Source of the DNA: an uncultured delta proteobacterium
GTDB lineage: Bacteria > Desulfobacterota > Desulfomonilia > UBA1062
Length of the DNA stretch: 64,000 nucleotides
Direction: 5' to 3'
NCBI GenBank assembly: GCA_963798485.1
Contig: CAWCTR010000017.1
Span: 160,001 to 224,000 of the forward strand
This document shows positions 26,595 to 56,765 of this stretch, piece by piece. The notes below the pieces were generated by a model, which saw nothing but the letters and a program-made list of their open reading frames with translations, was not told the DNA's origin and ran no database searches. Numbering within the stretch: the first letter of the stretch is position 1; every line of letters starts with the position of its first letter. A program made the position numbers and the translations under genes.

Positions 26595-26976
26595 AACATC
26601 CTCCTAAAAGATGGGACATGGAGAAACGGCATCCTCTTTAATATTCTAATACCGGATGTGCATGATTTCAACAGATCGAGGAACAAGGGAGGTCCTATGG
26701 AGATTAAACCTTGCGGAATCCTCTGTACGGGCAATCATCCCTTTTCAACTGTCGAGCGATTTGGGCACTGGTATTATAGCAGAGGTCAAGACAAAAAAGC
26801 CGGTATACACTCATCAGGGATGAAGTGGTGGTTGTTTACAAAGGATAAAGATCTCGCTGTCAGGACAGCTAAATCACACATAGAATAATTTGACCACAGG
26901 GTGATGATCTCTTTCGGAGAGTATCGGTTCTCAGGCATTTCAAAAAACAATAAGTTATCGCAGGAATCATCATAAG

Positions 26977-27032
26977 GAATAACGTGCTGATCACCGGCAG
27001 CTGTAAGCCGTCCGGTGGATTAAGGGTTAGAC
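26977..27032 (-). mobile_element. Integron attC site 1 (56 bp)
   Basis: Minus strand: R'' GTCTAAC, 5 nt, L'' ATCCACCG, stem, L' CGGTGAT, 6 nt, R' GTTATTC. L'' carries one extra base. The gene stop codon lies in R''. Confidence 0.92.
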
Positions 27033-27975
27033 GGCGCACACGTCCAGATTTGCGATCCCGCCACCCCGAAGCACAACCACTGTTTCTGTTCTGCTGTAGA
27101 TTTGGCGATCCGAAAAGTAAACAGTGCGGCTATTAATAGCTGCAACCTGATTGGTGTTGACCTCGAATCTCGATTGAAGTGGATCTTCGAGTACACCCAA
27201 CAAGGCCTGGCGCGTGTTTAGTGGAAATGAGACTTCGGTGCCAGGCAAACCATAACCGATCGGTCCACGCATGTTTGGGTCCTTGAATATAACCGCCACT
27301 GGATGATCGCATGTCACGAAGTCTGGAGCATCAGTTTCTGCGATGATCAACGACCAATACCGAGTACCGAGCAAGTGGAGTACTTGTTGAAACACTCCTA
27401 GCTCTAATGAGAGGCTATCATTGGTGCTGATTTCAACAGTGTACTGATCGTCCTGTATAAACTTTCTCATTTCTTCGAACGACACGTTAACACCTTCGGG
27501 AACGAAGCCGTTCTTTTTAGACTTAGAAATTTGGTATTCGAAGAGGCGTTGATCCGAGCTAAGTATGCTGCCAATAATGCGTGCCGTATGCTGATGAGCA
27601 GCATTCATAGCTCTCCGACTCTTTGGGTTGCGGACAACAAGCAGCGCCATTAGATTAATAACATAGCTGAACTCCTCGTCAGGAGGCAATTCACCGCTAT
27701 CTCGAATACCTTGAAGGACAGAGCCGGTTCTACCCTCAAACGCACCTAGTGCCTGCTCTAAGGCATCTGGATCTTGACCGTCGATATCTATTCGATTGAA
27801 ATCACGCATGGCAGCAACATTTCTAGGCTTGGTCTGAAATATGGAACCCGACACGAGATCCGATGCATAGAACTGCCCATCTCGAGTTCCATCGTCCGTA
27901 AACCCAGCGAGGTAGACTTGTGGTACAAAATGATGATTTCTAGAGGTCTTTTTCATTGTGTTACTCATAGTCTAA
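26983..27975 (-). mobile_element. Integron gene cassette 1
   Basis: Starts G|TTAGAC, the exact complement of its own R'' GTCTAAC. ATG follows immediately; one ORF plus attC. Confidence 0.9.
27027..27968 (-). CDS. DUF4238 domain protein (cassette cargo)
   Basis: N-terminal HHFVPQVYL, FVTCDHPV, FPLNTRQAL. Confidence 0.85.
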   Translation of the reverse strand: MSNTMKKTSRNHHFVPQVYLAGFTDDGTRDGQFYASDLVSGSIFQTKPRNVAAMRDFNRIDIDGQDPDALEQALGAFEGRTGSVLQGIRDSGELPPDEEFSYVINLMALLVVRNPKSRRAMNAAHQHTARIIGSILSSDQRLFEYQISKSKKNGFVPEGVNVSFEEMRKFIQDDQYTVEISTNDSLSLELGVFQQVLHLLGTRYWSLIIAETDAPDFVTCDHPVAVIFKDPNMRGPIGYGLPGTEVSFPLNTRQALLGVLEDPLQSRFEVNTNQVAAINSRTVYFSDRQIYSRTETVVVLRGGGIANLDVCAV

Positions 27976-28040
27976 CGTATTACTATACTGCACTTTTGCA
28001 GTATATCACCATTGTTATCCGAAGCACAATTGCAGTATAT
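27970..28040 (-). mobile_element. attI-like site and candidate cassette promoter, copy 1
   Basis: Minus strand GTATAGT-AATAC-GTTAGAC (7-5-7). 27979-28040 is identical to 55133-55194. TTGTGC-N18-TATACT with an extended TG. Confidence 0.75.
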
Positions 28041-28078
28041 CCAGATATTGAATGCAAGGTATTATGATGTTATAATAT

Positions 28079-28196
28079 TTAAATCGTTGATTTCGTGCCA
28101 TAGCCCACGGTTTAATATGATGTGTCTTACTGTGTATGTTTCAACCCAAGATCTTCGTTTTTTGAAATCTCAAAACCGACAAGAAATCGCAGTTAT
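28079..28196. repeat. Non-coding ~118-bp repeat, copy 1
   Basis: Aligns nearly gap-free with 55233-55351 and 56650-56765 (TTAAA..CGTGCCA..AAGATC..ATCGCAG). Confidence 0.8.
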
Positions 28197-28523
28197 GTTC
28201 ACCATGAGTAAAGTGACGATTTTGAGTTATAGTCTATGGTGGGTATTAATAAAACTTGGCTTAGTATGTTGGCACAATATCTATTTACATTCCAACATGT
28301 TATTAAATGAGTAAATTTAATTTTAACCCCATCTATTGACTTTCATTGAAGCAGAATTAATTTTTATAAATTAATCTATTAGTTATGCAAATTCTTTGTA
28401 GATACTATCAATAGTTTTTGATGAATAATTATTATCCCAGATTTTTTATTCACTTAGAGGAAAATCATTTACCAGAGGATTGGGATTAAAGAAATTAACT
28501 AATTGGAGAGAAAGGGGGTATCT

Positions 28524-31205
28524 ATGAGGAGAAAAACACGTATAGTTTGTTCAGTGCTGGTAGTTTGCGGGATTCTCACCGCTATTCCTGCAGCGTCCTA
28601 TGTTGTATGGATGTTGGCTGACCTCATGAATGTCGTTTCACCAACACAGCTGCAGACACTCAACTATCATCCTGTCGAGATCGTAGTAAACTTCAAGAAT
28701 GGAGCCATAGCAAATACCTTTACAGCTTCACTCAACGGGCATAATATCACAAGTGAGTTCACGCCTATCCAGGGAGGAGTACATGCCTATGTTACCCCGG
28801 ATGAAGGGCTGAACTGTTACATCATCGGTCAGAATTCGATACTGTCACAGATCAATTTTCTCGCCACGAGTATTCAGGGTAACGGTTATAAGTATGATGT
28901 AAATATCAATGAGTTCAATGTCAAATACTACCCGGTTAAGACAGCTCGGGACAATGTAGGAGTGTGGTTCATAACCGGGGGCGCTCTTGGTGATGTCATG
29001 GAGGCAATGGGGTATGCTGTGGCCACCGACAGGCTGTGGCAGATGGAGACATACCGCCGCACTGCAAGAGGCACACTTGCCGAGATATTAGGGTCATCTT
29101 ATTTATCAAATGATATCGGTGTGCGGACCATCAGCTATACCGATCAGGAACTCTCTGACGGGTTTGATGCCCTGGACAGGGATGCACAGATCGCCATATC
29201 AGAGTATGTAGAGGGTATCAATAAGCGTATCGACAATATCAAGGCAAATCCCTTACTGCTGCCGTTTGAGTTTTTGGCTGTGGGATTCCCACTCAATTAC
29301 ACCCCTGGTTATTGGACCGAAGAAGATATCCTTGCATGGATGTCATTCTTGTTGAGGGACTTCGATTGTGAGGCACTGGAATTTGGTCAGATCCAAAACG
29401 CTGCATTGTTCCAGGCACTGACAACTCAATATGGGGTCGCACAAGGCTACGGTATGTTCAACGACCTCAGGTGGTTAAACGATCCGAGCGCACTCACCTA
29501 TATCCCACCGGTTGCGACAACGGCTATGATGGCAGCCCCGGCCCTTGCTGCTCCCAGTGTCTCTGCCCAAGCACCTGCTATTCAGGGTATTTCGGGTGAT
29601 TTCCAAGGAGCTTATGAAGCCCTGTCTAACCAGAGAGATACCAATATAAATAACCTGAAAAATATCAATGCATTCGTGAAAATGGGGAGTTATGCATGGT
29701 CTATCTCAGGCAAAAAGACCGCGGACGGCAAACCGATTATTTACTCTGGTCCTCAGATGGGGATTACAGTGCCTCCAATCGTGATTGAAGGCTCTATAAT
29801 AGGTGGTGGTCTTACTATATCAGGGATGTCAGTCCCTGGTATCCCCGGCATCATTATCGGCCGGACACCGCATCATGCATGGTCCCAGCAGGTGGGGCAT
29901 GCGCATACGGTTGATTTTTACGTTGAATCTCCTTCGAGTATTACTCTCAACCGTGTGGAGACCATACATGTCGCCGGTCAGCCCGATTACACACTTCCCG
30001 TTTATCGTAGTAAGCATGGGCCGATTGTAAATCAAAGCCCACTACTTTCCTGGAAATACTCCCACTGGGGATATGAATTCAAGACGATCAAGGCGTACTT
30101 GAATCTTGCACGCGCACAGAGCATGGATGACTTCGGCAAGGCTATCGAGGATGTAGCTGTCAGTCAGCACTTCTGTTATGCAGACAAGGACGGGAATATC
30201 GCTTACTGGATGTCAGGCCGCGATCCTGTTAGGCCTGCTGGAGAATGGCGTCTGCCTCAGGGTATGATCGCTCCAGCACTTGAATGGGATGCCTCAGTCC
30301 TTATTCCGCGGTCAACGGATCGCAATAACGCCCAGGGTTATTACTGTGGATGGAACAACAAGAGCAACCCGAGCTACAATGATTCTATCAATAGTCCCGG
30401 CTACTTCTTCGGCCCGTTCGTCAGGGCTCACGTGATCAATGACTACCTTTCCACCAATAACAACCTCACCTATGAAGAGGTTCGGGACCTGGCCCTTTAT
30501 ATTGCTACCACTGATTCTTTTGGCCACGGGGGCATACCGTGGGATTTCGTGTCAGAGGATTTCACAAATGCCGTATTAAATAAGGCTGGAGGACCAAGCA
30601 CTGCTGAAAAGGCAGCCCTCAACCTTCTTTCGGCCTGGGACGGCAACTTTGTCGATGGAGGCCCCTCGGAATGGCGCGAGGGTGTAGACCGTTCCGATGC
30701 CTGGATACTCCAGGATGCCTGGATTCGAGAGGTTTTGAGGCTCACCTTTGCCAATACGCTGCCGTTCTATTTTGATGCCACTAATGATGCGGTAATATTC
30801 CGCCTGTTCAATGTATATCTCCACGCCATGGAAGGTGGCTTTAATAACTATCACTGGTTCCAAGGACAAGACACGAATGGCATCATTGTGACTGCGATTG
30901 ATAATGTACTTAAAAACCTTGGCCCGCAGCCATGGGGTACTGGGAAGCGCGGGGAGATCACGCTTGCAGATAGCTTCTTAGGCGGTACGGTTGTCGACAG
31001 TATACCATACGCTGAACGATCAACGTACGCTCATTGTGTTGAATTCGGTCCGAGCGGTCCCATTCGGATTGAAAGCATGTTCCCGCTCGGGGAATCGCAA
31101 AATATCCTCTTTAATGGCACAGGACCAGTATTCGATCCAAACTTCTTCAGCATGGTACCGATATACGACCCGTTTGAGCCAAGGTCATTCCCACTATTCC
31201 ACTAA
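28524..31205 (+). CDS. Penicillin/AHL acylase family (Ntn hydrolase)
   Basis: MGYAVATDRLWQM...RGTLAEILG, beta-chain start GSYAW, YADKDGNIAY, WNNK. Confidence 0.9.
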   Translation: MRRKTRIVCSVLVVCGILTAIPAASYVVWMLADLMNVVSPTQLQTLNYHPVEIVVNFKNGAIANTFTASLNGHNITSEFTPIQGGVHAYVTPDEGLNCYIIGQNSILSQINFLATSIQGNGYKYDVNINEFNVKYYPVKTARDNVGVWFITGGALGDVMEAMGYAVATDRLWQMETYRRTARGTLAEILGSSYLSNDIGVRTISYTDQELSDGFDALDRDAQIAISEYVEGINKRIDNIKANPLLLPFEFLAVGFPLNYTPGYWTEEDILAWMSFLLRDFDCEALEFGQIQNAALFQALTTQYGVAQGYGMFNDLRWLNDPSALTYIPPVATTAMMAAPALAAPSVSAQAPAIQGISGDFQGAYEALSNQRDTNINNLKNINAFVKMGSYAWSISGKKTADGKPIIYSGPQMGITVPPIVIEGSIIGGGLTISGMSVPGIPGIIIGRTPHHAWSQQVGHAHTVDFYVESPSSITLNRVETIHVAGQPDYTLPVYRSKHGPIVNQSPLLSWKYSHWGYEFKTIKAYLNLARAQSMDDFGKAIEDVAVSQHFCYADKDGNIAYWMSGRDPVRPAGEWRLPQGMIAPALEWDASVLIPRSTDRNNAQGYYCGWNNKSNPSYNDSINSPGYFFGPFVRAHVINDYLSTNNNLTYEEVRDLALYIATTDSFGHGGIPWDFVSEDFTNAVLNKAGGPSTAEKAALNLLSAWDGNFVDGGPSEWREGVDRSDAWILQDAWIREVLRLTFANTLPFYFDATNDAVIFRLFNVYLHAMEGGFNNYHWFQGQDTNGIIVTAIDNVLKNLGPQPWGTGKRGEITLADSFLGGTVVDSIPYAERSTYAHCVEFGPSGPIRIESMFPLGESQNILFNGTGPVFDPNFFSMVPIYDPFEPRSFPLFH

Positions 31206-31234
31206 GAAGTTTTCTTATAGTGCAAATACACTGA

Positions 31235-31264
31235 CCCTGCCCGTACTCCCGGGCAGGGCTTTTT
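31235..31264 (+). terminator. Rho-independent terminator
   Basis: CCCTGCCCG / CGGGCAGGG followed by a T tract. Confidence 0.75.
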
Positions 31265-31477
31265 CTAATATTATTGATCAATCATTAGTCTAAAACTTAT
31301 ATTATCAACTGGATATAAATGAGTGTTTCCCAATTCAGGTGAGATACTGTAGATTACGCAAAAGGATTATTGGTTTTATAAGCATGGAAAAACTATATAG
31401 TTCGTGCCATACACAACGTCCTGCCTATACTGATGATTCCTTTTGAAAATATATATTCTGGCTTATGGGCTAGTAAC

Positions 31478-31999
31478 TCAATCCTTGTTGGCGGCATTGA
31501 CCTTTATCACGTGGAAGGCCTTTTCTAGATCTTGCGGTTTAAGCTCTACCATGAAACCCCTCTTGCCGCCATTGATGAAGATGCGGTCCAGCCCGAATAT
31601 CGTGGACTCTCCATATACCGGCAGCCTTGTACGAGTGCCGAAGGGGCTGATACCGCCTACCATGTAGCCGGTATATCGATTGGCGTCTTTTTCATCACAA
31701 GGCTCAATGTGCTTCACGTTGAGTTCCCGGGCAAGCTGTTTGGTGGAGACCTCACGGTCGCCATGCATGAGCATGATGAAAGGCTTATTATCATCTGGTT
31801 CCATGATCAGGGTCTTGATCACCTGGTGTTCGGGGATGAGAAAATATTCAGATACATGATGGGTGCCGCCATGTTCGACAAAGGGGTAGAGGTGTGGGAT
31901 GAATGCAATCTTTTTGTCCCGCAGCAAACGGATAGCCTGAGTGATCGGGTAGTCCGGCCTTGTCATTGTCTTATCTTGTTGTCCCCTGTCAGATGCCAT
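31478..31999 (-). CDS. ybaK: Cys-tRNA(Pro) deacylase YbaK family
   Basis: VIKTL, TGYMVGGISPFG, INGGKRG. Start may be at 31966. Confidence 0.88.
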   Translation of the reverse strand: MASDRGQQDKTMTRPDYPITQAIRLLRDKKIAFIPHLYPFVEHGGTHHVSEYFLIPEHQVIKTLIMEPDDNKPFIMLMHGDREVSTKQLARELNVKHIEPCDEKDANRYTGYMVGGISPFGTRTRLPVYGESTIFGLDRIFINGGKRGFMVELKPQDLEKAFHVIKVNAANKD

Positions 32000-32066
32000 G
32001 TTCAGGCATCACATCATCCGGAGCAGTGATTAAAGGCTTCGAAGGGCATGGGTTTGAAGAAATGCC

Positions 32067-33497: not shown

Positions 33498-33625
33498 GGA
33501 TAAGACCTCCGATCATATCTGGGCATGCACTGGAATGCATGGCTTTACCTTGCTATGGGAAACATCATAACACTAGGGTGTTCAAAAGCAAGGGGTATAT
33601 GGGCACCGGGCAATAGGCTTTCGGG

Positions 33626-34738: not shown

Positions 34739-34748
34739 AGTGTTCTCC

Positions 34749-35003
34749 TTACATTTTTCTGGGTAATGCCTTCAATGCCTTTATGTACCTGACCTCATTG
34801 AAAGGCCTGCCGGCTTTCAGCATATCATTCATCTCTTTTACTAAAACAAAGGCGATTAATCGCATTGCATCATCGTGATGACGACCTTCACGAATCAACC
34901 TGTCATAGGTGGACTTTGTCTCTTTGGGATTGTTCTTGTCGATCTGATTCTGGATTGTTTCGAACAGTGCCTCTCTCACATACATCTTGTTGTCATTGAC
35001 CAT
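34749..35003 (-). CDS. Small conserved hypothetical protein
   Basis: 84-aa ORF in operon position, with RBS GGGG. The longer upstream extension overlaps the MFS gene. Confidence 0.7.
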   Translation of the reverse strand: MVNDNKMYVREALFETIQNQIDKNNPKETKSTYDRLIREGRHHDDAMRLIAFVLVKEMNDMLKAGRPFNEVRYIKALKALPRKM

Positions 35004-35017
35004 GATATCCCCCGATT

Positions 35018-36220: not shown

Positions 36221-36223
36221 TGT

Positions 36224-36886: not shown

Positions 36887-36905
36887 GGCTTGGCTACGTC
36901 ATCTC

Positions 36906-37796: not shown

Positions 37797-37805
37797 GGAG
37801 TCCTT

Positions 37806-44280: not shown

Positions 44281-44406
44281 AAAAGGCAGTATCGGATATC
44301 GTGTGAGTTACCTTTCCAGGAATGGTCTTTTCTCCCTGTGTCTGGCGCAAGATTAATCATATGGTGAAAAAAACGACTATACATCTCTCTTCCCCTCGTA
44401 CATGAG

Positions 44407-45642: not shown

Positions 45643-46338
45643 TCAAGATAAAGATAAGTATTTTTTCCCATACAGCGCCTGGTCATACTCTGCCCGGCGG
45701 GACGGGCAGTTCCGCCTGGGGCACAAGGAACAGTTCACAAAGTGCTCACCTCCGACGTACTGGATGCCTGTGACGGACTTTAAAGGGTACAGGAGCATGT
45801 GAGAGCTCAGGCTCACCCCCACGGTCTCAGGAATCGAACCTAACAGTTCGAAGAGCGGCCGCTGCTGGGCCAGGGGCCAGTCCTCAAGTGATCCGGGGTT
45901 CATGCACGAGAGCTGCGCCGGGCTCACCTTGTCCTTCAGGTGCGCCTCCAGGGCCGTCATGGCCGACCCCAGGGCCAGGAGCATGATGGTGTCGGCCCAG
46001 AATGCATGCAGTGTCCCGGATATGGACCGTGCCCATTCCTCCAGGTCGGGGCCGCAGGTGGCGACAAAGGGGTAGACGGCCTTTGCGCCGGTCAGGTTAA
46101 CGCGCAACACCCGGCTGTCAAACCTGATCCCCTTGATGAACACATGTGCGTCTCCCATGGAATCAACCGCAGTAACCCTGAAGGCGGCCCTGGGGCGGGC
46201 AGCCGACAAAGCCCGGGAGAGAATCCCGGAAAGCTCCCCGGCCATCTTCGTGCCGGGCCGGACCTTGAGGATATCGCCCAGGCCTTTTTCTTCAAGGGTA
46301 AAAGGGATGTGATCGAGGATAATCGCGTCTTCGGTCAT
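45643..46338 (-). CDS. Methionine synthase activation-domain-like protein
   Basis: PFVATCG, MNPGSLEDWPL, YPLKSVTG, C-terminal CxxCxxxxC. Confidence 0.8.
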   Translation of the reverse strand: MTEDAIILDHIPFTLEEKGLGDILKVRPGTKMAGELSGILSRALSAARPRAAFRVTAVDSMGDAHVFIKGIRFDSRVLRVNLTGAKAVYPFVATCGPDLEEWARSISGTLHAFWADTIMLLALGSAMTALEAHLKDKVSPAQLSCMNPGSLEDWPLAQQRPLFELLGSIPETVGVSLSSHMLLYPLKSVTGIQYVGGEHFVNCSLCPRRNCPSRRAEYDQALYGKKYLSLS

Positions 46339-47909
46339 CTTATTGCCCCTGAAGGCATAGGGAACGTAATGCATCGGATGAATTCGTCTTCGAACCCGGG
46401 ATGAAGTGCGAGTTCCACCTCACGGACCTGGTCTCTCAGGGAGGATGCCTTATCCATGAACGGGGCGTCCATACAGGCTGTCTCGGCCGCCTTCAGGCTT
46501 GTGTTGCCCAGAAACCGCCAGGACGCGTTCAGGAAGTCCGGCAGGAAGCCCAGGGCCTTGAAATTTTCAAGGTTCAGGTGCTCCCCGAAGGCCCCGGCTA
46601 TAAGCACTTGTTCGATCGCCCCCGCATCCATACCGGACTCTTTCAACAGGATGCGGGAGGCGGCAAGGCCGGCGGCCTTGGCGAGCTGGAGGTTTCGTAT
46701 GTCCTTCTGGGTGAAAAGAATATCACCCTGGAGCCTGAGTGCCTTCATGCCTTCAATCTCTTCGGCGGTAAGGGGGAAGGGCAGGTCTGAGGGCTTAAGG
46801 TCCTTCCGAAAGGCACCGTCAGGCCGGATGATTCCCCGTCTCAAAAGGATAGCCGTCAGGTCCACGAGTGCTGTGCCTGAGATGCCCGCAGGCTCTCCTC
46901 TACCCATCATGTTGAAGGCAAGACCTAAAGGGCCGTGTTCCACTGCGGTTATGGCCCCGTCTTCGGCGGCCATGCCCCAGGCGATGTTCATACCCTCCAG
47001 TGCCGGACCCATGGCACACGACGTTGCGAAAAGATCCTTGTTCCCGTTCATGACGAACAGCTCCCCGTTGGTGCCGAGGTCGATGAAGAAAGCGTTCTTT
47101 TCGATGCCGGACCCCCGGCACAGGGTAAGCCCGCCCATGAGGTCTCCGCCGATGAAGGCGCTGAGCACGGGCAGGGCAAGGATCCGTGCGCCCTGAAATG
47201 CAGGGGTGTCCCTGTCCGCAGGGGTGAACCCGGTGAAGTCCCGTGTCTTCACCTCGTAGGGATATCTGCCGAGCGGTACTACGTCGAGGCCGAAGAAAAG
47301 CGAGAGCATGGTAGTGTTCCCGGAGAACACGATGAGTTCACAAGAGCCCGGAGTCATCTTACATGCCTCCAGGAACCGGAGCATGGCATTGAACACGGAT
47401 GACCGGATAAGATCGGACTGTAGGCGGGCTTTTGCAGGGTCGGAACATGCAGCTATGCGCGAGATCACGTCGTGCCCGAACCTGCGCTGGGGGTTAAGGA
47501 ACGAGTCTATGGGCAACGTGTTCCGGTGTTCAAGATCAACGAGCGAGATGCGGACCGTAGTGGTGCCGATGTCGCATGCGAGGCCGTAACGGCTGTCCTT
47601 GGATAGGCCCGGGCATGGTTGCTGCGCCGAGGCGTATGTCTCATCCATGAATACCTCGACATCGCCTTGTATAACTGCCTGGCAGGCCAGGCGCATGCCG
47701 GGCTTGTCTTTCAGTGCCTTTGCCTCCATATGGCCCTGCCCCGACAGTGCCCCTGTTGCCTTTACCATGCATTTACCGCAGGTACCCTTGCCTCCGCAGG
47801 GGGTCCTCACGGCAATGCCCATATCCATCAGGGCGTCGGCCAGGAGGGTATGCCGGGTAAAAATCTGGTGTTTGCCTGAAGGTGTGAGCCTGAGCCTGCA
47901 ACCGCTCAC
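46335..47909 (-). CDS. ASKHA-type reductive activator of corrinoid proteins (RACE/RamA-like)
   Basis: 2Fe-2S motif CGGKGTCGKC...LAC, DIGTTT, SGNTTM, DLGTNGE, AGAFG. Confidence 0.9.
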   Translation of the reverse strand: MSGCRLRLTPSGKHQIFTRHTLLADALMDMGIAVRTPCGGKGTCGKCMVKATGALSGQGHMEAKALKDKPGMRLACQAVIQGDVEVFMDETYASAQQPCPGLSKDSRYGLACDIGTTTVRISLVDLEHRNTLPIDSFLNPQRRFGHDVISRIAACSDPAKARLQSDLIRSSVFNAMLRFLEACKMTPGSCELIVFSGNTTMLSLFFGLDVVPLGRYPYEVKTRDFTGFTPADRDTPAFQGARILALPVLSAFIGGDLMGGLTLCRGSGIEKNAFFIDLGTNGELFVMNGNKDLFATSCAMGPALEGMNIAWGMAAEDGAITAVEHGPLGLAFNMMGRGEPAGISGTALVDLTAILLRRGIIRPDGAFRKDLKPSDLPFPLTAEEIEGMKALRLQGDILFTQKDIRNLQLAKAAGLAASRILLKESGMDAGAIEQVLIAGAFGEHLNLENFKALGFLPDFLNASWRFLGNTSLKAAETACMDAPFMDKASSLRDQVREVELALHPGFEDEFIRCITFPMPSGAIR

Positions 47910-47915
47910 CTGTTA

Positions 47916-48029
47916 TCAACCCTTGAGGCTCAGTGCCGCATGGATGAAGGCATCCGGGTTTTCCGCAGGGGTTTCGAGTGGTAGGTCGCAGAGCGATGAA
48001 AGGATGAAGGGGACGCCTTTTACACCCAT
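47916..48029 (-). pseudogene. C-terminal remnant of a UroD/MtaA-family gene
   Basis: Translates to MGVKGVPFILSSLCDLPLETPAENPDAFIHAALSLKG; compare GFILAGGCEIPANSRPENLKAMI in 51989-53191. Confidence 0.7.
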
Positions 48030-48031
48030 GT

Positions 48032-48673
48032 TCACACCGCCTTGCAGTAGGAGGTGAAGATCCGCAACGCATCGATGGCGGTCTCACCGTAGGCGTCGGC
48101 CCCCATCTCCCGGCACAGGGCCTCCGAGGTGCAGGCCCCTCCGATAACAATCTTCATGGCATCCCGCAGGCCCGCCTTTGTGCTCATATCCGCCACGTCG
48201 CGGATGCTCCCCACCATGGTGGTGAGCAGGGCGGAGAGCCCTATGAACTTTGTGCCCGTTGCCGTTGCCGTTTCTATGATCTTTTGTGCAGGCACGTCCA
48301 CCCCCAGGTCGATGACCTCGAACCCGTTGGCGGATAAGATCATGCCTACGATGTTCTTGCCGATCTCGTGAATGTCTCCGGCCACCGTTGCCAGGATAAC
48401 CTTGCCTCGCAGGCTTGCTTCATCAGGGTTCATGCGTGACTTGAGAAGGGGCATGGCCTCCTTCACGACCTCGCCTGCCATGATGAGGTCTGCCAGGAAA
48501 TACTCCCCTTCCTCGAACTTGCGGCCCACGGTCGCCAGGCCTTTGCTGATGCCCTCCTGGATGATGATCTCAGGGGCAAGACCTTCTTCCAGGCATTTAG
48601 CCACAAGGGCGCTGACCCCGTCGATGTCCAGTTCGTCTATGGCCTTCTGTACCGCCAGGATGGATTCGTTCAT
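48032..48673 (-). CDS. Corrinoid (B12-binding) protein
   Basis: VGRKFEEGEYFL cap, GDIHEIGKN, GLSALLT, IGGA. Confidence 0.93.
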   Translation of the reverse strand: MNESILAVQKAIDELDIDGVSALVAKCLEEGLAPEIIIQEGISKGLATVGRKFEEGEYFLADLIMAGEVVKEAMPLLKSRMNPDEASLRGKVILATVAGDIHEIGKNIVGMILSANGFEVIDLGVDVPAQKIIETATATGTKFIGLSALLTTMVGSIRDVADMSTKAGLRDAMKIVIGGACTSEALCREMGADAYGETAIDALRIFTSYCKAV

Positions 48674-49863
48674 TGAGCAGCCTCCTTGGGTGCGGTTTCA
48701 AGTGATATGGGGTATGCCCCGTACCGGCTTACCGCGTCCACCATGACCTCGAGCTTGCGGGCCGGTATGGAGCTCAGGCTGTGGACCGGGGCGATGATGA
48801 ACCTGCCGCCCGGGCCCAGTCCGGTGATAAGCCTCTTGACCTCTTCTTCCACCTCCTGGTCCTTCGAGCGGTCCGTGAGCAGATAGTCCACCCCCACGCC
48901 GCCGATGATGGTGACCGCCTCCCCATGGAGCTTTTTCTCCCTGAAGATGTCCACGTTGGAGGTATTTTCGTAGGCGTGCAGACCGTCCACACCCCAGGAG
49001 ATGAAGGTGTCGAAGAGCAGGGTGTTGTCGCCGCAGGAGTGGAGTACATATTTGCCTTTGCGGTCGTGCACGGCCTTGATGATGCGCCGGTAAGGCCCTC
49101 CGAAGAGTTCGTCGATGATTTTCGGGTTCATGATGGGTCCGCTCTTGAAGGCGAAGTCGTCGGTCTGGATGATGACCGGCACTCCAGCGTCTAAGAGCGC
49201 CATATTTGTCTTGAGACAGATCTCCTCGTTGAGGTCGATGTAGCGCTTCACCAGGTCCTTTTCCCGCCTGATCCATACGGGCATCTTCTCGAAACCCACT
49301 GCCCACAGGAGCGACTCCTGGATACCGTAGGCTGGGCCCTGGCCGAAGAGGCAGGTCCGCTGCCCGTAATCGTATACGACCTTTTTGAAGAAGGTGTAGG
49401 TTCTCTGCGCCACATCGTCGGCATCGGGCCAGTAGGGCCAGGCCTCGAAGTCCTCCCTGCTCTTGATGCCCGGGCCCCGGTACATGTAGGTCATGTTGCC
49501 ATACCCGTCGGGCTGGATGTTGAACACAGAGCCGTTGAAGCGGACCATAGTGGTGTGGTTGAGCACGGTAAAGGTCTCGTCCAGGATCGCCCACACCGAG
49601 TCGAAACCCAGTTCTACCTGTGCCCTGATGCGCTTCATGAGCGCCCGGTTCAGCTCTCTCTGAAATATTGGCCTGGTGATCAGGGGCCCCCACCGGTCCA
49701 GCACGAACCGGGCCACAGGGTTGGTCATGAGCAGTTCCTGGGATATGAGCGGCTTCCCGAGAACCTCATTGAAGGTCCGGTCCTCCACCATGGCGCAGAA
49801 GGTAGGGACCCGGTCCGTTGGTTTCCCGTCCAAGGCATAAAGTGCGCGATCTATCGGGTGCAT
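48670..49863 (-). CDS. Uroporphyrinogen decarboxylase/MtaA-family methyltransferase
   Basis: DRVP start, DDFAFKSG, LHSCG, GGRFIIAPVH. Confidence 0.85.
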   Translation of the reverse strand: MHPIDRALYALDGKPTDRVPTFCAMVEDRTFNEVLGKPLISQELLMTNPVARFVLDRWGPLITRPIFQRELNRALMKRIRAQVELGFDSVWAILDETFTVLNHTTMVRFNGSVFNIQPDGYGNMTYMYRGPGIKSREDFEAWPYWPDADDVAQRTYTFFKKVVYDYGQRTCLFGQGPAYGIQESLLWAVGFEKMPVWIRREKDLVKRYIDLNEEICLKTNMALLDAGVPVIIQTDDFAFKSGPIMNPKIIDELFGGPYRRIIKAVHDRKGKYVLHSCGDNTLLFDTFISWGVDGLHAYENTSNVDIFREKKLHGEAVTIIGGVGVDYLLTDRSKDQEVEEEVKRLITGLGPGGRFIIAPVHSLSSIPARKLEVMVDAVSRYGAYPISLETAPKEAAQ

Positions 49864-49876
49864 GAAGGACTCCTCC

Positions 49877-50752
49877 TCAAATCCTCTCAAGTGTCTTCTT
49901 TATCTCGATGATGAAGGACCGGTCCGACCCGCAGCAGCCGCCGATGAAGTTCGCACCGGCCTTTACGAGTTCAGGGACGAAGCTGGCAAAGTCATGGGCG
50001 GTTGTGTGGTACACGACCTGTCCCGCCACCCTCTCGGGCAGCCCGGCGTTCGCCTTCATCCACAGGGGCAACTCGGTTGCGGCGCGCATGCGGGAGCAGA
50101 TGGGAATGAACCCCTCGATTCCCTGCCCGCAGTTGGCGCCGAGGACGTCCGCCCCTGCCTGAGAGAGGACCTCTACGGCCTGTTCCGGCGTATTGCCCAT
50201 CATAGTGCGGTCCTTCATTTTACCCGCTGCAAAGACCAGGCAGGCGACGACCGGGAGCCCGGTCTTCTTGGCGGAGGCAACGGCTATGCGCGCCTCAGCG
50301 AGGTCCATCATGGTCTCCACCACGATAGCGTCGGCCCCGGAGACGGCTATGGCCCGGGCCTGCTCTTCAAAGGCTTGGGCCAAGTCGGTCTCGGTCACCT
50401 CTTTTACGGCCAGGAGCTTGCCGGAAGGGCCCATGGATGCGAACACGAAAGCCTTGCTTCCGGCTGCCCGGCGGGAGATCTCCACGCCCGCGATGTTTAT
50501 CTCCCTGACTTTATCGGCCTGGCCGAACTTGCCAAGTACATAGCGGTTGGCCCCGAAGGTGTTGGTCAGGATGACCCGGCTGCCGGCATCCACGTATTCC
50601 TTTGCCACCTCCTGGACCTTGTCCGGGTGGGTGAGATTCCACGTATCAGGTGATTCGCCGGGCTTCAGGCCGCGTTTGATTATCTGCGTGCCCCAGGAAC
50701 CATCCGTCAGGACGGGTCCGTCCTTGATGAGCTCGGCGATGAAAGCATGCAT
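49877..50752 (-). CDS. Homocysteine S-methyltransferase domain protein (stand-alone MetH N-domain)
   Basis: DGSWGT, TNTFGAN, GANC, ANAGLP, GGCCG. Confidence 0.92.
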   Translation of the reverse strand: MHAFIAELIKDGPVLTDGSWGTQIIKRGLKPGESPDTWNLTHPDKVQEVAKEYVDAGSRVILTNTFGANRYVLGKFGQADKVREINIAGVEISRRAAGSKAFVFASMGPSGKLLAVKEVTETDLAQAFEEQARAIAVSGADAIVVETMMDLAEARIAVASAKKTGLPVVACLVFAAGKMKDRTMMGNTPEQAVEVLSQAGADVLGANCGQGIEGFIPICSRMRAATELPLWMKANAGLPERVAGQVVYHTTAHDFASFVPELVKAGANFIGGCCGSDRSFIIEIKKTLERI

Positions 50753-51285
50753 GGTTTTCTCCTTATCGAGAAAGATCTCGTGTGAAACACGCAATGCTAT
50801 TGAGAGCACCTTTTTGAGAATGAGTCCCTTTTGATCTAAACTATACCCGGCCCAGCGTCAATCTCAACTGTGATGGCGGGTATGGATTACTTAGGCCGGT
50901 TCTACAGGTTTGTGGTGTATTTATCCCGAATTTAACCGACCTATTAAAAACAATTCCATGGAGTTTTATGCTTAAGGCCACCTGAAGTGGTTAGAGTATT
51001 CATATGTATCAGCTATAATTTGATCTTAGAAATGAAACCCGGCACTAAATTAAAATATGTCAATGTGCTCTTTTGCTTATTGATAAAAAGTCAAGATAGC
51101 GTGCCAAGATATACACTATTATAGTTACTGATAAATTGTTAAGATATCTCATGAGGATCATAAAAAGGGTAAAAGGTCTGGGGAATAAAAGATGAATATT
51201 GTAGGCCTTATGGAATTACATGTGTCTTGCAGGATGTGCTATCTTTAGTAATTCAGGAGCACTATTCAATAGAGGAGGAGCAGTA

Positions 51286-51933
51286 ATGGCAAGTGGCAAG
51301 GAGGTCTTTGACGGATTCCGGGAGATGTTCTTCTCCTTCAATCTGGATAGGATTACTGCGGAGACGGATCGACTTCTCAAGTCAGGTTGTTCGCCCCAGG
51401 ATTTTCTTCTTGTGTGCCAGCAGTGCATGGAGGAGGTCGGAAAGAAGTTCGAAGCCGGCGACTATTTTCTGCCCGAGCTGGTTATGGCCGGGGAAATATT
51501 CAAGCAGGTGAGCTTCTCGATCAAACCATACTTCAAGGACGGTGATGGTCAAAAACATCTTGGGACAATCGTTATCGGAACTCCCAAAGGTGATATCCAC
51601 GCCTTGGGGAAGGATATTTTCTGTGTCCTGGCAGAAGCGGCCGGTTTTATCGTCCACAACCTGGGAGAAGACGTCCGCCCTGAGAGTTTTATCGACAAGC
51701 TGAAAGCCACCGGCGCATCGATCCTCGGCATGTCGGCATTGATCACCACTACATATCATTCCATGGCCCAGGTCATAGAGCTGCTCAAAGAGAATGGCAT
51801 GCGTGACGACGTCAAGGTGGTGATCGGCGGAGGGGCGACCTCAAAAGACCTGGCGGAAAAGATCGGAGCCGACGCCCAGACCTGGGATGCCTATGAAGGC
51901 ATCCGGATCATTCAATCGTTTGCGGGTGTCTAA
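51286..51933 (+). CDS. Corrinoid (B12-binding) protein
   Basis: VGKKFEAGDYFLPEL, GDIHALGK, GMSALIT; RBS GGAGG. Confidence 0.92.
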   Translation: MASGKEVFDGFREMFFSFNLDRITAETDRLLKSGCSPQDFLLVCQQCMEEVGKKFEAGDYFLPELVMAGEIFKQVSFSIKPYFKDGDGQKHLGTIVIGTPKGDIHALGKDIFCVLAEAAGFIVHNLGEDVRPESFIDKLKATGASILGMSALITTTYHSMAQVIELLKENGMRDDVKVVIGGGATSKDLAEKIGADAQTWDAYEGIRIIQSFAGV

Positions 51934-51988
51934 GCCTGGAACGTATTCATTTTCATGATTTATATTCCTTGTGCATGGTGAGGACCGT

Positions 51989-53191
51989 ATGCAGAGAAAA
52001 AGGATGCTTTATAAAAAAGACCGGATGACAGCCGACGAAAGGCTTGCAAAGGTCATTCAATGCGAAGAGCCTGATCGCGTGCCGGTTTCCATGATGATCT
52101 ATTACTATGCCCCCTACCACACCGGCACCAGCATGGGTGAATACCTGAGAAACCCTGCAACGTACCAGCAGGTGATGCATAAGGTTTATGAAGATCTCGG
52201 CCCATGGGACATCTACTACAACATCAATCCCTACTCACGCCTGGTTTACACCTTCGTGATGATGATGCGTTCGCTCTGGCCGGGAGTTGAACTGCCTTTA
52301 GATGATGTCGTGCAGACGGAGGAAATCGAATATATGCACCCGGAGGATTATGACGAGATCCTAAGAGGTTCATCGCTTAGCGTAAAACTCTGGGGTGACA
52401 TCCTTTTCCGTTTAAAGATGCTCCAACGCTTCAGCCAAGACGCCAAAGGGTACAGCCTTCCGCGATTAACGCTGAAAGTGATTACGGGATTGCTGCATCA
52501 GATTGTCTTCTGCCGGCGCGACTTCAAGTGGTGGGAGAGTCAGGGCCTGGCGGTTCAAATCGGTTATCAGGCTGAAATGCCGTTCGATACCTTTTCTCAG
52601 GGCAGGAATGTCATCAACTTCTCCAAAGACCTGTTCTCGGTGCCTGATAAGATTGGGAAGGCAGCCACCCAGCTTGCTCACGGGTATGCAACGTTTTCGA
52701 TCCTCACGGCAAAGTACCTCATGGGCGTCCCCAGGGTGCAATTGTACCTGCACCGAACATCGAATAGCTTCATCTCGCCACGGCATTTTGAAAACCTGGC
52801 CTTCCCCAGTATGGAGATCATCGTCAACCGACTTGTCGATGCCGGAATCACACCGATCCTGCATTGTGACGGCGACTGGCTGAAGAACCTTAAAATTCTG
52901 CGACGCCTTCCTGCTAAGAAATGTGTCCTGCAGCTTGACGGCCTGACCGATATTTTCCGCGCCAAGGAAGAGATCGGGGATCATATGTGCATTTTTGGTG
53001 ATGTATCCGCCTCACGGCTGGTGATGGGCAGCCCGCAAGAAGTGGATGAATATTGCCACCGCCTGATTGAACAGGTTGGTAAAGGCGGAGGATTCATCTT
53101 GGCCGGTGGTTGTGAAATCCCGGCCAATTCACGTCCGGAAAATCTCAAGGCCATGATAAACTCGGTATATAAATACGGCTACTATCACTGA
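51989..53191 (+). CDS. Uroporphyrinogen decarboxylase/MtaA-family methyltransferase
   Basis: EPDRVP, LHCDG, GDV, GGFILAGGCEIP...PEN. Confidence 0.87.
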   Translation: MQRKRMLYKKDRMTADERLAKVIQCEEPDRVPVSMMIYYYAPYHTGTSMGEYLRNPATYQQVMHKVYEDLGPWDIYYNINPYSRLVYTFVMMMRSLWPGVELPLDDVVQTEEIEYMHPEDYDEILRGSSLSVKLWGDILFRLKMLQRFSQDAKGYSLPRLTLKVITGLLHQIVFCRRDFKWWESQGLAVQIGYQAEMPFDTFSQGRNVINFSKDLFSVPDKIGKAATQLAHGYATFSILTAKYLMGVPRVQLYLHRTSNSFISPRHFENLAFPSMEIIVNRLVDAGITPILHCDGDWLKNLKILRRLPAKKCVLQLDGLTDIFRAKEEIGDHMCIFGDVSASRLVMGSPQEVDEYCHRLIEQVGKGGGFILAGGCEIPANSRPENLKAMINSVYKYGYYH

Positions 53192-53484
53192 CCCCGGCGC
53201 ATGTGGACAGCCGGGCGGGTCAATGGGCTCAGTAAAAATATCTCCTTAAGATCCAAGCACCCCTATAAACGGAAGAGATCATAGATTTCTATAAGGGATC
53301 TCATTGGCTCAAATGATAAAGATCGTTCCACTATATGTACTTTGATATGAGATATCTCCAAGTATAGATTACATCTGAGAACATATATTTTTCGGCCCAT
53401 CTTGAAAGCGATTATTTATCTATGAGATCAATGGTTATTCTTTCAGCAATAGGACTGATGAGTTATCGCAGGAATCATCATAAG

Positions 53485-53545
53485 GTATAACGGGACGCAT
53501 CAGCCTCGCGGGCGGCACGCCCGCGTCCGCCTGAATGGGTTAGCT
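53485..53545 (-). mobile_element. Integron attC site 3 (61 bp, partly degenerate)
   Basis: Minus strand: R'' AGCTAAC, L''-like ATTCAGGC, GC stem CGCGGGCG/CGCCCGCG, R' GTTATAC. R'' complements the cassette start GTTAGCT. Confidence 0.8.
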
Positions 53546-53564
53546 AATCTTCAATGGTTTTTTA

Positions 53565-54167
53565 TTATGAGAGCAAGACTCCTGCAAGTTGAACCAGAAA
53601 AGCTAGTATTAGAAGACCCGGCCCTAGCTTTGATAAGAAAACCTGCCACTTCCCAACTGATTTCTTTTCCTCTTTTGGATTGCCAATCCACGGAATGACT
53701 GGTGCTCCCTTTTCTGTATAAAATTGAATACGTGGTGGATAATAGAACATTAAAGCAGCTGATATTATACCAAGTCCTAATCCGAGCAAGGTTAAAGCCT
53801 TTGATATAGTTATCTGTGAAATTCCAGATACTGAATGGGCTTGAAATTGAGATGGAATTGGTCTTTTTATTTCCAGCCTTTGTTGTAATACAGATTGCTT
53901 TTGAATATTCCAAGGAATTTGATTTGATTTAAATGTATAATTGGATAGTACAAACAGAATGATCATTACAATAATTCCTATAATCGCTGAAATTGCCGCA
54001 ATCTTGCTCCACTTAATAGTTTCTATTATTTGTTCTTTTTCTTTTATTTCTCTTTTTGAGAGTGCTTCTAATGCAGGTTTATGAAAGTGGTGGGGGCTTG
54101 GAAAATTCTTTAAGATTTCTTGTAATTCTGCTTTTGATTTATTTTCAAAATCTGGAGGTTCATTCAT
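53565..54167 (-). CDS. Hypothetical membrane protein (cassette 3, about 53491-54188)
   Basis: AT-rich ORF with 3 hydrophobic segments, between attC2 and attC3; RBS GGAG. Confidence 0.7.
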   Translation of the reverse strand: MNEPPDFENKSKAELQEILKNFPSPHHFHKPALEALSKREIKEKEQIIETIKWSKIAAISAIIGIIVMIILFVLSNYTFKSNQIPWNIQKQSVLQQRLEIKRPIPSQFQAHSVSGISQITISKALTLLGLGLGIISAALMFYYPPRIQFYTEKGAPVIPWIGNPKEEKKSVGKWQVFLSKLGPGLLILAFLVQLAGVLLS

Positions 54168-54182
54168 TAAATTCTCTCCAGA

Positions 54183-54230
54183 AGCTAACGCGCAGGTAAG
54201 CGGCTTGTCCGCTTGACCTGCTGGTTAAGC
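54183..54230 (-). mobile_element. Integron attC site 2 (48 bp)
   Basis: GCTTAAC, 5 nt, GGTCAAGC, GGACAAGCC, GCTTACC, 5 nt, GTTAGCT. Extra C in L''; the gene stop lies in R''. Confidence 0.9.
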
Positions 54231-55112
54231 TTCATGGCTGCCCCTTTGTCCTTTACGAATTGCATTCTTGTATGCTCCGCACTGCTCTTTAATTGGGCAA
54301 GGTGTCGCATAATGAATTGACAAGCAAGTGCCACTATGCCTAGTCAGCGGCAGAACAGGGTCAATTGAGCGCATATAGCCCAACCCAGTGAAAAACCCGC
54401 ACAAGGTTATTGTTGTCTCCAAGGGAAGTGTTGTGTAAAAGAACTCAAAAACATTGTGCTGTAATTGCAAAGTATTTTTGTAGACCTCATTAATGTACTC
54501 TACAAAATCAGCGATGACTAAACAGCGTGCTTCGGTGCCTAAGCCTCTATGCATATACGATACTTTCCCTGTTTTATCGTCCTTACTGCAGCTGCCCAAA
54601 CTACCATGAGTAAACTCGGTTCGATACTTGCGAAGCTGAAGAAACCAATTATCATATGACTCAGCAAATAGCGCATTTAGTTCGACAGGAAAATATTTAC
54701 CGTACTTATTATTTTTAGCCTTCGAAAAAAGTTTGCTCGTTGATTTTTTCTGGACACCTTCTATAGAAGAGTAAACTGCATAAATCACATCTCTAATTCC
54801 GTATAAGGCTGCGTATAACTCGTTTATGCAGCACTCAGCTATTGCAGAGAATTGCCGCGAATATTTGGCATGAGTATGACCTTTCTCATTCATTTCCTTT
54901 CTATCAAAATCAAATCCACCAATTAATTCATTCCCGATTTCTGCTAATACGCGGAATTTATCAAGATGATCAGAGGTAGCACTAATTCCTCTTTTAAATA
55001 TTTTGTTCCCTTCCAATAATGCATACTTAAATTTTCCGAATCTATCGACCGCATCCCATTCCTCAGGCGCGAATACTAGTAAAAAAGCATCATGTCCTGC
55101 TACTTTTTTCAC
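54225..55112 (-). CDS. Hypothetical protein with HEPN-like RxxxxH motif (cassette 2, about 54189-55133)
   Basis: Helical protein with LRKYRTEFTHG and a Cys-rich tail; RBS GAGGAG before a GTG start. Confidence 0.7.
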   Translation of the reverse strand: MKKVAGHDAFLLVFAPEEWDAVDRFGKFKYALLEGNKIFKRGISATSDHLDKFRVLAEIGNELIGGFDFDRKEMNEKGHTHAKYSRQFSAIAECCINELYAALYGIRDVIYAVYSSIEGVQKKSTSKLFSKAKNNKYGKYFPVELNALFAESYDNWFLQLRKYRTEFTHGSLGSCSKDDKTGKVSYMHRGLGTEARCLVIADFVEYINEVYKNTLQLQHNVFEFFYTTLPLETTITLCGFFTGLGYMRSIDPVLPLTRHSGTCLSIHYATPCPIKEQCGAYKNAIRKGQRGSHEA

Positions 55113-55127
55113 AGCACTCCTCTATGG

Positions 55128-55194
55128 ACTTAATTACTATACTGCACTTTTGCAGTATATCACCATTGTTATCCGAAGCACAATTGCAGTATAT
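55128..55194 (-). mobile_element. attI-like site and candidate cassette promoter, copy 2 (4-bp deletion at the junction)
   Basis: 62-bp identity with 27979-28040. Junction reads GTATAGTAA-TTAAGT versus GTATAGTAATACG-TTAGAC in copy 1. Confidence 0.72.
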
Positions 55195-55232
55195 ACGTAT
55201 ATTAAGTGCACGGCAATATGCTGTTAAATTAC

Positions 55233-55351
55233 TTAAACCATAGCTTACGTGCCAGAGGCCACGGTCTGATGTGAAGTGTCTTTCTGCGTATGTTTCAATC
55301 CAAGATCATCGGTTTTTGGACCTTTGGAAAGTGCCAACTTATCGCAGTTAT
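55233..55351. repeat. Non-coding ~118-bp repeat, copy 2
   Basis: Aligns with 28079-28196 and 56650-56765. Confidence 0.8.
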
Positions 55352-55441
55352 CAACGGTTGATAGTAAGAGATTAAGGTCGTTCTTCTACTTCAGATCTAT
55401 AGTATGAGAAAAAATGCTAGGATAATCTTAGAAGTTCTTAT

Positions 55442-55475
55442 AAAAGGGCGGGGAAACATCCCTCGCCCTTTTTTT
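55442..55475. terminator. Bidirectional-type terminator
   Basis: AAAAGGGCGGGG ... CCCTCGCCCTTTTTTT, just after the stop of the 55486 gene. Confidence 0.7.
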
Positions 55476-55485
55476 GAAAACGAAA

Positions 55486-56493
55486 CTACTGTACGGTGAT
55501 TGGAACAAGGGCCTCACTGCCTATCCATAAACCCGATCCGTCAGCTGTGTTGGCTATTGGTATTCCCCCTGTTCCTATGCCTGGTGTTATGATTCCTACC
55601 ATCACTTGATAGCTTCCCGCTGTTACACTATTCGCGGGGATATTACAGGAGGTAGAGGCTGTAGAGATAATAAGAGGTATATCATTAGAAGGATAGATCA
55701 GATTGCCGTCAAGGTCAATAAGTCCGACATAATACGTTGCATTCGTGGTCGGCGCACCGGCTGACCAGGTGACGGTATTAGCGTTGGCAGTCTGCCAAAA
55801 AGCACCTGATGTAGGAGCAGTGATGTTTGGGAATATCGTGTACTGGGTTCCAGTTGCGGTGTAGGTCGTGCTCCCAATGGTCACACTTAGATTGACTGGA
55901 GAACCTGCAGATATTACTATGTATCCTTTATACTTTTGTGAAGTCGAATGATAATCAAGAGTGGTTCCATTTATTGTTACCAAGGCGTTTGTTATTGGTG
56001 TTGTAATTGTACTATCGGTATAGACTTGAACCCCTTGGAGCGCATCCCCGTTATTATCCCCTTGGGCCAAACTCCTTACTATGGCATTGATGTATGGCGC
56101 GGCTGAAGCTGTGGCTGACGGCGTTGCGTTCACCTGGGTCGATGCTGCTGATTCACCAATGGAATTTACCGCAGTTACCACATAGTAGTATGGTGTGCCG
56201 TTGGTCAGCTGTGTCTGAATGTAAGGATTGGTTGCGCTGGCTATTTTGGTGCCGTTGGCCGTAGTCACACCGGTCGTAGTGGACCAGTAAATGTTGTAAG
56301 ACGTTGCGCCTGTTACTGACGTCCAGGCAATAGTTACCTGGTCATTCCCTGGTGTGGCGGTAACACCTGTCGGAGCTGCCGGGGCAGTTGTTGTCGAAGA
56401 AGAACTACCTCCTCCTCCACATCCGACAAAGAGTGTAATGATTGAGAGAACTATGATTGACCGGAAGATGCCCAGTAAGCGAGATGTACCCAT
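55486..56493 (-). CDS. Fibronectin type III lipoprotein
   Basis: Lipobox FVGC-GGGG; APTGVTATPG...W...ATSYNIYW...YYYVVTAVN..GES. Confidence 0.88.
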   Translation of the reverse strand: MGTSRLLGIFRSIIVLSIITLFVGCGGGGSSSSTTTAPAAPTGVTATPGNDQVTIAWTSVTGATSYNIYWSTTTGVTTANGTKIASATNPYIQTQLTNGTPYYYVVTAVNSIGESAASTQVNATPSATASAAPYINAIVRSLAQGDNNGDALQGVQVYTDSTITTPITNALVTINGTTLDYHSTSQKYKGYIVISAGSPVNLSVTIGSTTYTATGTQYTIFPNITAPTSGAFWQTANANTVTWSAGAPTTNATYYVGLIDLDGNLIYPSNDIPLIISTASTSCNIPANSVTAGSYQVMVGIITPGIGTGGIPIANTADGSGLWIGSEALVPITVQ

Positions 56494-56649
56494 AAATTGT
56501 CCCCCTCTAATATAAACTGAAATAGGCTTTCATAGATGCAATGTTTCTTCGATGCTAAAAGCCTTACCCCTCAGAGAAGATGCATATCGTGATAGAGTAA
56601 CCAAATATATTATATAACAATTATATTACCCTCGGTCAAACTGAACTTC

Positions 56650-56765
56650 TTAAACCGTAGATTCCGTGCCATGCTTGATGCTCTGATATAGAGCGCCTTG
56701 CTGCATAGGTTTGAACTTAAGATCAGTTTTCAGCATTCTCAAAACCGTGATGAAATCGCAGGAAT
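56650..56765. repeat. Non-coding ~118-bp repeat, copy 3 (no attI part)
   Basis: Same conserved blocks as copies 1 and 2. Similarity to copy 2 continues through ATCAAC-N-GTTGAT. Confidence 0.75.

Follow-up and report, generated by a model that had tools for sequence, protein, structure and literature searches.

Which process places short, unrelated accessory genes and two mini-integrons between copies of one non-coding repeat in the genome of an uncultured delta proteobacterium? The window analyzed comprises 64,000 nt of contig CAWCTR010000017.1, and its coordinates are used throughout. An earlier note had described in it a repeat of 116-119 bp ending in the 11-bp motif ATCGCAG(G/T)(A/T)AT, and had proposed that recombination sites or element ends stack whole modules there, including the integron platform. 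Our analysis leads us to favor, with some confidence, the view that a tyrosine recombinase acting in trans on non-autonomous modules uses the repeat as a composite site. As far as can be judged from sequence, the repeat probably enables such an enzyme to move whole modules and stack them.

Genome contigs were queried with three conserved blocks of the repeat, which yielded 18 loci. A profile built from the window copies, a scan that the earlier note had suggested, matched nine of them with E values of 5.5e-14 or better, and the nine loci without a match (L003, L004, L006, L008, L010, and L014-L017) served as controls. The matching loci belong to six assemblies, whose record titles name two Desulfomonilia, two delta proteobacterium, one Thermodesulfobacteriota and one Bacteriovoracaceae; Desulfomonilia are a class of Thermodesulfobacteriota. 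Together, these nine loci and the window contain 23 full or near-full sites in 192,758 bases, and the controls comprise 148,471 bases.

The repeat unit measures 126 bp and consists of three 33-bp inverted-repeat dyads, each with 13-bp arms around a 7-bp spacer. Dyad A (spacer CGTGCCA) is followed after 15 bp by dyad C (variable spacer) and after a further 12 bp by dyad B (spacer ATCGCAG), and the arms of all dyads share one consensus, near AAACYGWAGATYT. Such arm-7-arm dyads with asymmetric spacers represent the design of simple tyrosine-recombinase sites. The three long copies noticed initially are real (65-82% identity, E 5e-13 or better, indels of 1 and 3 nt), but the length assigned to them was too short, as the unit extends 13 bp past the motif. 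Between copies 1 and 2 the homology goes beyond the repeat and reaches 219 nt (27979-28196 versus 55133-55351) at 82% identity, within which an attI-like block of 62 nt is identical. The earlier note had missed a fourth full copy, which is decayed (53311-53437), as well as right-hand half-units at 31403 and 51100. The motif occurs five times on the plus strand (26957, 28186, 53465, 55341, and 56755) and never on the minus strand; for this motif, which was defined post hoc, occurrences averaged 0.145 and never exceeded 2 in 200 order-2 Markov simulations. As a terminal core, however, only the 7-mer ATCGCAG is conserved, and the last four bases of the 11-mer differ in other genomes. The palindrome ATCAAC-N-GTTGAT after copies 2 and 3 (55350 and 56764) exists but represents a variant right arm of site B rather than a separate element, and was seen once in the nine related loci. 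That the repeat is non-coding is borne out by stop codons and missing codon periodicity, whereas the original argument from frame is weak on its own because one of the indels is 3 nt long.

Dyads with a 7-bp spacer numbered 98 in the family loci and window versus 11 in the controls, a partly circular comparison, whereas other spacer lengths gave 19-37 and 7-19 dyads, respectively. A fourth dyad, D, was not part of the training of the arm model; its eight examples scored best at a spacer of 7 (+3.9), and every other spacer length was negative. Arrays of units open with B, either on its own or preceded by the right half of C, and close with A and D spaced 4 bp apart. Additional dyads were found 47 bp or 37 bp after B and ~46 bp before A. 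Among the 39 distances between neighboring dyads, 33 were 37 or 44-48 bp, which would correspond to about 3.5 and 4.5 helical turns.

All nine related loci contain further copies or half-copies within a few kilobases, with one or two genes in between and usually in the same orientation; orientation is direct for all window copies and in most loci, and mixed in L002. The 23 sites separate short, unrelated and often secreted or defense-like genes irrespective of gene direction, as eight are located between convergent genes (one of these neighbors being an insertion sequence [IS] gene), eight between tandem genes, five between divergent genes, and two at contig edges. Cargo in the related loci, as derived from 122 open reading frames (ORFs), includes PEP-CTERM, Ig-like, FN3, TPR and Sel1 proteins, a Schlafen-AlbA protein, PAS proteins, and enzymes. 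The guanine-plus-cytosine (GC) fraction of the module regions is 0.39-0.46, versus 0.54-0.56 in host stretches. One assembly harbors three separate arrays, and copies per genome are probably well above the number retrieved, since the exact search pattern fits none of the non-seed full sites. In comparisons of window copy 1 and an L013 copy with plasmid and phage collections, blastn returned only chance hits of 20-32 nt. The window contains the following features:

26898-26976, plus strand: left end of array 1, with an outer dyad C' (spacer 26911-26917) and dyad B (spacer ATCGCAG, 26957-26963); the right C arm scores weakly and needs a 1-nt shift
26977-27032, minus strand: attC of cassette 1, whose distal 7-bp box adjoins the right arm of dyad B
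27027-27968, minus strand: cassette gene of the DUF4238 family (Pfam), a candidate defense protein (PADLOC DUF4238-Pers, E 7e-40)
27970-28041, minus strand: attI-like site 1, with no intI alongside and no integrase among the 55 window ORFs
28081-28205, plus strand: full site R1, with dyad A (28094-28100), a 15-bp gap, dyad C (28142-28148), a gap and dyad B (28186-28192)
28210-28242, plus strand: extra dyad X (spacer 28223-28229), 4 bp after dyad B of R1
28503-31205, plus strand: cargo, penicillin amidase-family gene (Pfam)
31344-31459, plus strand: right end of array 1, with dyads A2 (31357) and A (31403-31409), a 4-bp gap and dyad D (31440-31446)
51087-51119, plus strand: lone decayed dyad A (spacer 51100-51106), with a possible C-like dyad 48 bp on
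53311-53437, plus strand: full site R0, decayed and flanked by convergent genes (A 53324, C 53372, B 53418; nhmmer E 2e-6)
53452-53484, plus strand: a further B dyad 47 bp after R0, with spacer ATCGCAG at 53465-53471, that bounds mini-integron 2 on the left
53485-55112, minus strand: two integron cassettes, with attC 53485-53545 (called from boxes and fold), ORF 53565-54167 (start uncertain), attC 54183-54230 and ORF 54225-55112
55128-55195, minus strand: attI-like site 2
55235-55360, plus strand: full site R2 (A 55248, C 55296, B 55341)
55486-56493, minus strand: cargo, FN3-domain lipoprotein-like gene (Pfam)
56652-56774, plus strand: full site R3 (A 56665, C 56713, B 56755), with a 3-nt deletion in the right C arm
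56789-56821, plus strand: extra dyad 47 bp after the B of R3, with an inverted A-like spacer (56802-56808)

Array 1 (26898-31459) thus consists of mini-integron 1 followed by the penicillin amidase gene and is closed by an A-D end, which scored 43.8 in a leave-one-locus-out test (control maximum, 3.6); C-B is absent beyond it. The arrangement of dyad X recurs in L012 and L018. Array 2 begins at 53311 and comprises mini-integron 2, the FN3 gene and a low-GC stretch up to about 59650 (with a PEP-CTERM gene at 58476-59126), in which no recognizable right end was found. For the lone dyad A at 51100, neither a B after it nor a matching left end was found in the window; it is flanked by two divergent gene sets for corrinoid proteins and URO-D-like methyltransferases (46335-53191), which may or may not be cargo. 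The 5' region of the FN3 gene is 80% identical to that of a module gene in L011, and such a 5' region is common to lipoprotein modules from different genomes (window 56461-56641, L011:9111-9290, and L018:13320-13440); inspection of the L011 and L018 copies showed a GG-N10-GC sigma-54-like box.

Both mini-integrons are real: three attC sites were identified on the minus strand, with cassettes entering an attI-like block. On inspection, site 1 contains an R box (27970-27976), a 5-bp gap, an L box (27982-27988), and direct-repeat boxes at 28001-28007 and 28035-28041, so that copy 1 appears to combine the attI features of L box, 5 bp, R box, cassettes joined at G/TT and direct-repeat boxes. Sites 1 and 2 are identical over 62 nt, with site 2 being 4 nt shorter between its L and R boxes (55128-55135), a difference that may freeze the array of mini-integron 2. 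A complete integron, with intI beside attI, was not found, as there was no integrase among the 55 window ORFs or beside the corresponding block in L018. There, too, the attI block adjoins the repeat (83% identity over 70 nt, 1 nt shorter at the L-R gap); behind it lies a small PycTM-like ORF (weak hit), and an attC-pattern scan found no attC left. On the minus strand at 55188-55216, a sigma-70-like promoter (TTGCCG, 17 nt, TATACT) overlaps the distal attI box of mini-integron 2; as a candidate cassette promoter it is weak, the scan having given 23 sites versus 17 expected. In L012 (3088-4445), a two-gene integron cassette with attC, possibly a secondary-site insertion, lacks the attI block and lies inside a module that is flanked by a perfect 20-bp direct repeat corresponding to the left arm plus spacer of B.

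The positions at which related sequences switch partners coincide with the spacers. At the left ends of mini-integrons 1 and 2, the B spacer is identical at 7/7 and the right arm at 13/13 positions, whereas the left arm, at 7/13, is at background (6.9); the B at 53465 stands in a B-14-B context and that at 26957 in C-B. Eight of the 406 pairs of A sites share their module-side flank, and four of these, from three flank families, enter different outer ends to the right of the spacer; their left arms agree at 8-12/13 positions and the stretches past the right arm at 3-9/25. Three of the nine left-end-only sites retain the right arm of C (15.8-18.0 bits, compared with a full-site mean of 18.3) and have lost everything to the left of the C spacer. 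Linkage among 18 full sites fell from r 0.46 within the left part to -0.03 across C. Exchange would map to the A spacer as well as to B, and probably also to the C spacer. The proposal that such sites stack modules, including an attI platform, is supported by the site anatomy, the half-units at array edges, the break in mini-integron similarity at ATCGCAG and the linkage of attI block and repeat in L018. It needs amendment in that the core represents only one of three dyads, and in that modules are flanked by direct copies, as had been stated, but also lie between B and A sites.

We propose the following mechanism. Each 13-7-13 dyad would bind two subunits of one recombinase, and small non-autonomous modules, consisting of one or two genes or of an attI platform with cassettes, would have a B spacer as their left limit and an A spacer as their right limit. 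Excision between two like sites would give a circle carrying A-C-B, which may re-enter a resident array at the B or A spacer, the conserved 7 bp supplying the homology needed for strand exchange and neighboring dyads acting as accessory sites. Repeated entry of modules would build arrays, and the variable-spacer dyads C and D would be the points where founder units meet host DNA. Anatomy, distribution and sequence breakpoints are observations, from which we infer the enzyme class, cutting, circles and order of events.

Several data weigh against a trans-acting tyrosine recombinase. Spacer conservation is in part built into the search, as 12 sites were selected on the spacer pattern; in non-seed full sites the mean pairwise identity of the spacers was 0.61 (A), 0.65 (B) and 0.42 (C). 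Local symmetry in the profile is strongest about an axis between C and B, off any spacer, and the outer spacers at the two ends of one array are not duplicates. A correlation between the left part and the downstream sequence (r 0.31, p 0.018) is without explanation. The pooled B test was uninformative, as the right arm was also at background in the 17 of 561 pairs that share a flank. Linkage inside the C-B segment was undetectable (Mantel r 0.05, p 0.28), so Mantel tests cannot address exchange at B. The swaps at A could be due to homologous recombination, because only that dyad is common to the two outer types. Neither an empty site nor a circle was seen in the window and related loci, whole assemblies not having been compared. 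The cognate recombinase was absent from the 55 window ORFs, and only one of the 122 locus ORFs is an integrase, the rest of the genomes not having been searched. This integrase lies in L018, where the inverted repeats upstream of its gene differ from the dyads.

A recombinase gene adjacent to the copies, for which the earlier note had suggested a check, was not among the 55 longest non-overlapping window ORFs scanned with Pfam, which include no integrase, resolvase or transposase, and a PHROGs scan of 24 unannotated or cargo proteins revealed no further recombinase. The L018 integrase is a 205-amino-acid tyrosine recombinase with catalytic residues but without a core-binding domain. Its gene is located between two facing A-D ends with similar D spacers (L018:13541-14775), a segment that could be invertible or carry an unrelated passenger. 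Searches with tblastn gave only generic relatives near 40% identity, and the Atlas gave generic short integrases. The protein is a candidate for the cognate enzyme that these data neither support nor exclude.

The same features can be read differently. An unlikely alternative is that the repeat represents the junction between right and left ends of tandem non-autonomous tyrosine-recombinase transposons in the style of Tn554, SE or Tn916, with cutting only at the variable C and D spacers, A and B as accessory sites, and swaps arising from homologous recombination among copies. The loss of linkage across the C spacer and the three left-end-only sites that break at C agree with this, as does the inverted repetition of the left A arm and the right B arm, which are 62% complementary in register versus 31-43% when slid; SE and Tn554 ends are described as imperfect inverted repeats with a spacer carried over (PMC10214605). 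However, all nine A-4-D ends lack a C-B after them, whereas an A-15-C end lacks it only once, in the doubtful case at 51100. Free tandem insertion would not predict that A-D ends are always without C-B and is disfavored for this reason. Furthermore, the mini-integrons break at B and not at C, and conserved asymmetric spacers at accessory sites would require another explanation. It is improbable that the six arms are bound by a serine resolvase, in a res-like arrangement whose subsites have unequal spacers (4, 12 and 15 bp), or by a multi-site DDE transposase. A length of ~120 bp with three subsites does resemble res sites, and the best local symmetry axis pairs the right C arm with the left B arm across 12 bp, but this pairing leaves two arms unpaired, the odd 7-bp spacing is constant in A, B, C, and D, the breakpoints lie in the 7-bp spacers, and none of the 177 ORFs scanned encodes a resolvase.

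The two alternatives offered originally, a shared regulatory leader and a structured RNA, fared worse. A leader in the form of a transcription-factor operator array controlling surface-protein genes would be in line with the many PEP-CTERM or lipoprotein cargo genes, the PEP-CTERM class having a known shared upstream element (PMC1569441), and with the 5/23 sites between divergent genes. We consider it very improbable, given that the 8/23 sites between convergent genes are upstream of none, that half-units mark array edges, and that on inspection the consensus contains neither TTTACA nor a complete -24/-12 box. Readings of the repeat as a decayed gene, as a structured RNA or as a single-stranded hairpin like that of attC are still harder to credit. 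Among 10 single folds, one reached a z of -2.4 and the terminal arms can pair, but Rfam gave no match at the repeat, RNAalifold predicted 0 pairs for 18 copies, and the covariation of the terminal pairing was at shuffle level (488/500 shuffles as high). Likewise, a gene fragment is contradicted by the lack of codon periodicity (p 0.66) and of a commonly open frame, none being open in more than 6 of 17 copies.

Other candidate identities were rejected. A sigma-54 promoter reading of TGGCACG lacks the -12 box on inspection, and the PEP-CTERM upstream box (TTTACA plus a sigma-54 box, only upstream of genes) does not correspond to the repeat, whose sites include convergent ones. The consensus of integration host factor matched the arms only in part. 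As for an integron attC or super-integron repeat, the pattern scan skipped R1-R3, and there were 0 consensus pairs and no covariation.

Comparison with known systems provided partial matches. In the pdif modules of Acinetobacter plasmids, tyrosine-recombinase sites bracket short modules that are stacked and lack a recombinase (PMC9771954). The modules studied here are likewise short, arrayed between sites of tyrosine-recombinase type and devoid of a recombinase, whereas their sites are chromosomal, combine three dyads with conserved asymmetric spacers in 126 bp and mostly have direct orientation, and the left ends of arrays differ from the right ends. A reference title indicates that pdif sites are single XerC/XerD dyads in inverse orientation around the module. 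With the R64 shufflon (Rci/sfx), the repeat shares the arm-7-arm geometry, and the A spacer CGTGCCA is identical to the spacer of 5/7 R64 sfx sites (PMC4176322; R64 record). However, both sfx arms score negatively on the A profile (-5 to -20), and R64 sfx sites are inverted, mediate inversion only and adjoin rci, none of which holds for the repeat. Tn554, SEs, GInts and RITs have imperfect inverted-repeat ends, a short variable spacer and a target preference (PMC10214605, PMC3414803). Inverted arms are present in the repeat, but those elements carry two or three recombinase genes and short ends, whereas the modules here have no recombinase gene among the window and locus ORFs scanned and multi-dyad ends that recur inside arrays.

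As in integrons and attC-site clusters without an integron-integrase (CALINs), nested modules contain real attC cassettes behind an attI-like site, and intI is absent. Mobilization of integrons in trans by flanking non-coding elements, namely integron mobilization units (IMUs) and MITEs (miniature transposable elements with inverted repeats), is known (PMC3575428, PMC4889954). IMUs and MITEs are transposase driven and produce target duplications, whereas the flanks here are recombinase-type dyads common to non-integron modules, and the platform is an attI of ~70 bp between two dyads. The functional kin would be pdif modules, non-autonomous Tn554/SE-type elements and, for the integron modules, IMU/MITE, although the repeat or its modules appear to differ from each of these in defining features. 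Our literature search, which mostly did not cover subscription journals, found no description of the A-C-B site family; supplements to RIT, SE and integrase surveys could bear on it. A family of composite recombination-type sites that organizes accessory modules and carries attI platforms is apparently undescribed. The comparison also drew on PMC8138268, PMC5737581, PMC11014353 and 10.1101/2022.09.11.507474.

The repeats were themselves targets of mobile elements. In L001, two group II introns (8467-9145 and 10101-11016; Rfam RF01999, RF00029 and RF02005), one per strand, are each inserted in a separate B dyad, at an edge of its ATCGCAG spacer. IS1182-like DDE elements (Pfam), 77% identical to each other, interrupt a B spacer in L002 (7228-9062) and apparently an A spacer in L001 (about 14880-16700), which together with the introns makes four insertions into conserved spacers. 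A surface protein gene in the window (42406-44280), with Ig-like and beta-propeller domains and internal coding repeats with a period of 150-180 nt, is unrelated to the repeat family.

The site model is specific enough for an enzyme search and test, and a recombinase whose sites have short arms and two naturally incompatible spacers would make a useful tool. The origin of clusters distant from intI is one of the open questions on CALINs (PMC4889954), and the repeats would offer a concrete way for attI platforms and cassette clusters to arrive at positions far from any intI. They would represent a second-tier module system, comparable to pdif modules except in how the site is designed, in an anaerobic lineage whose members are mostly uncultured. 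More tentatively, they may belong to a chromosome-wide gene-cassette system separate from integrons, in which one recombinase acts in trans on double-stranded modules between incompatible left B and right A spacers and a minimal attI is portable. If this were true, it would amount to natural two-site cassette exchange at many loci per genome, and integron platforms would be higher-tier cassettes.

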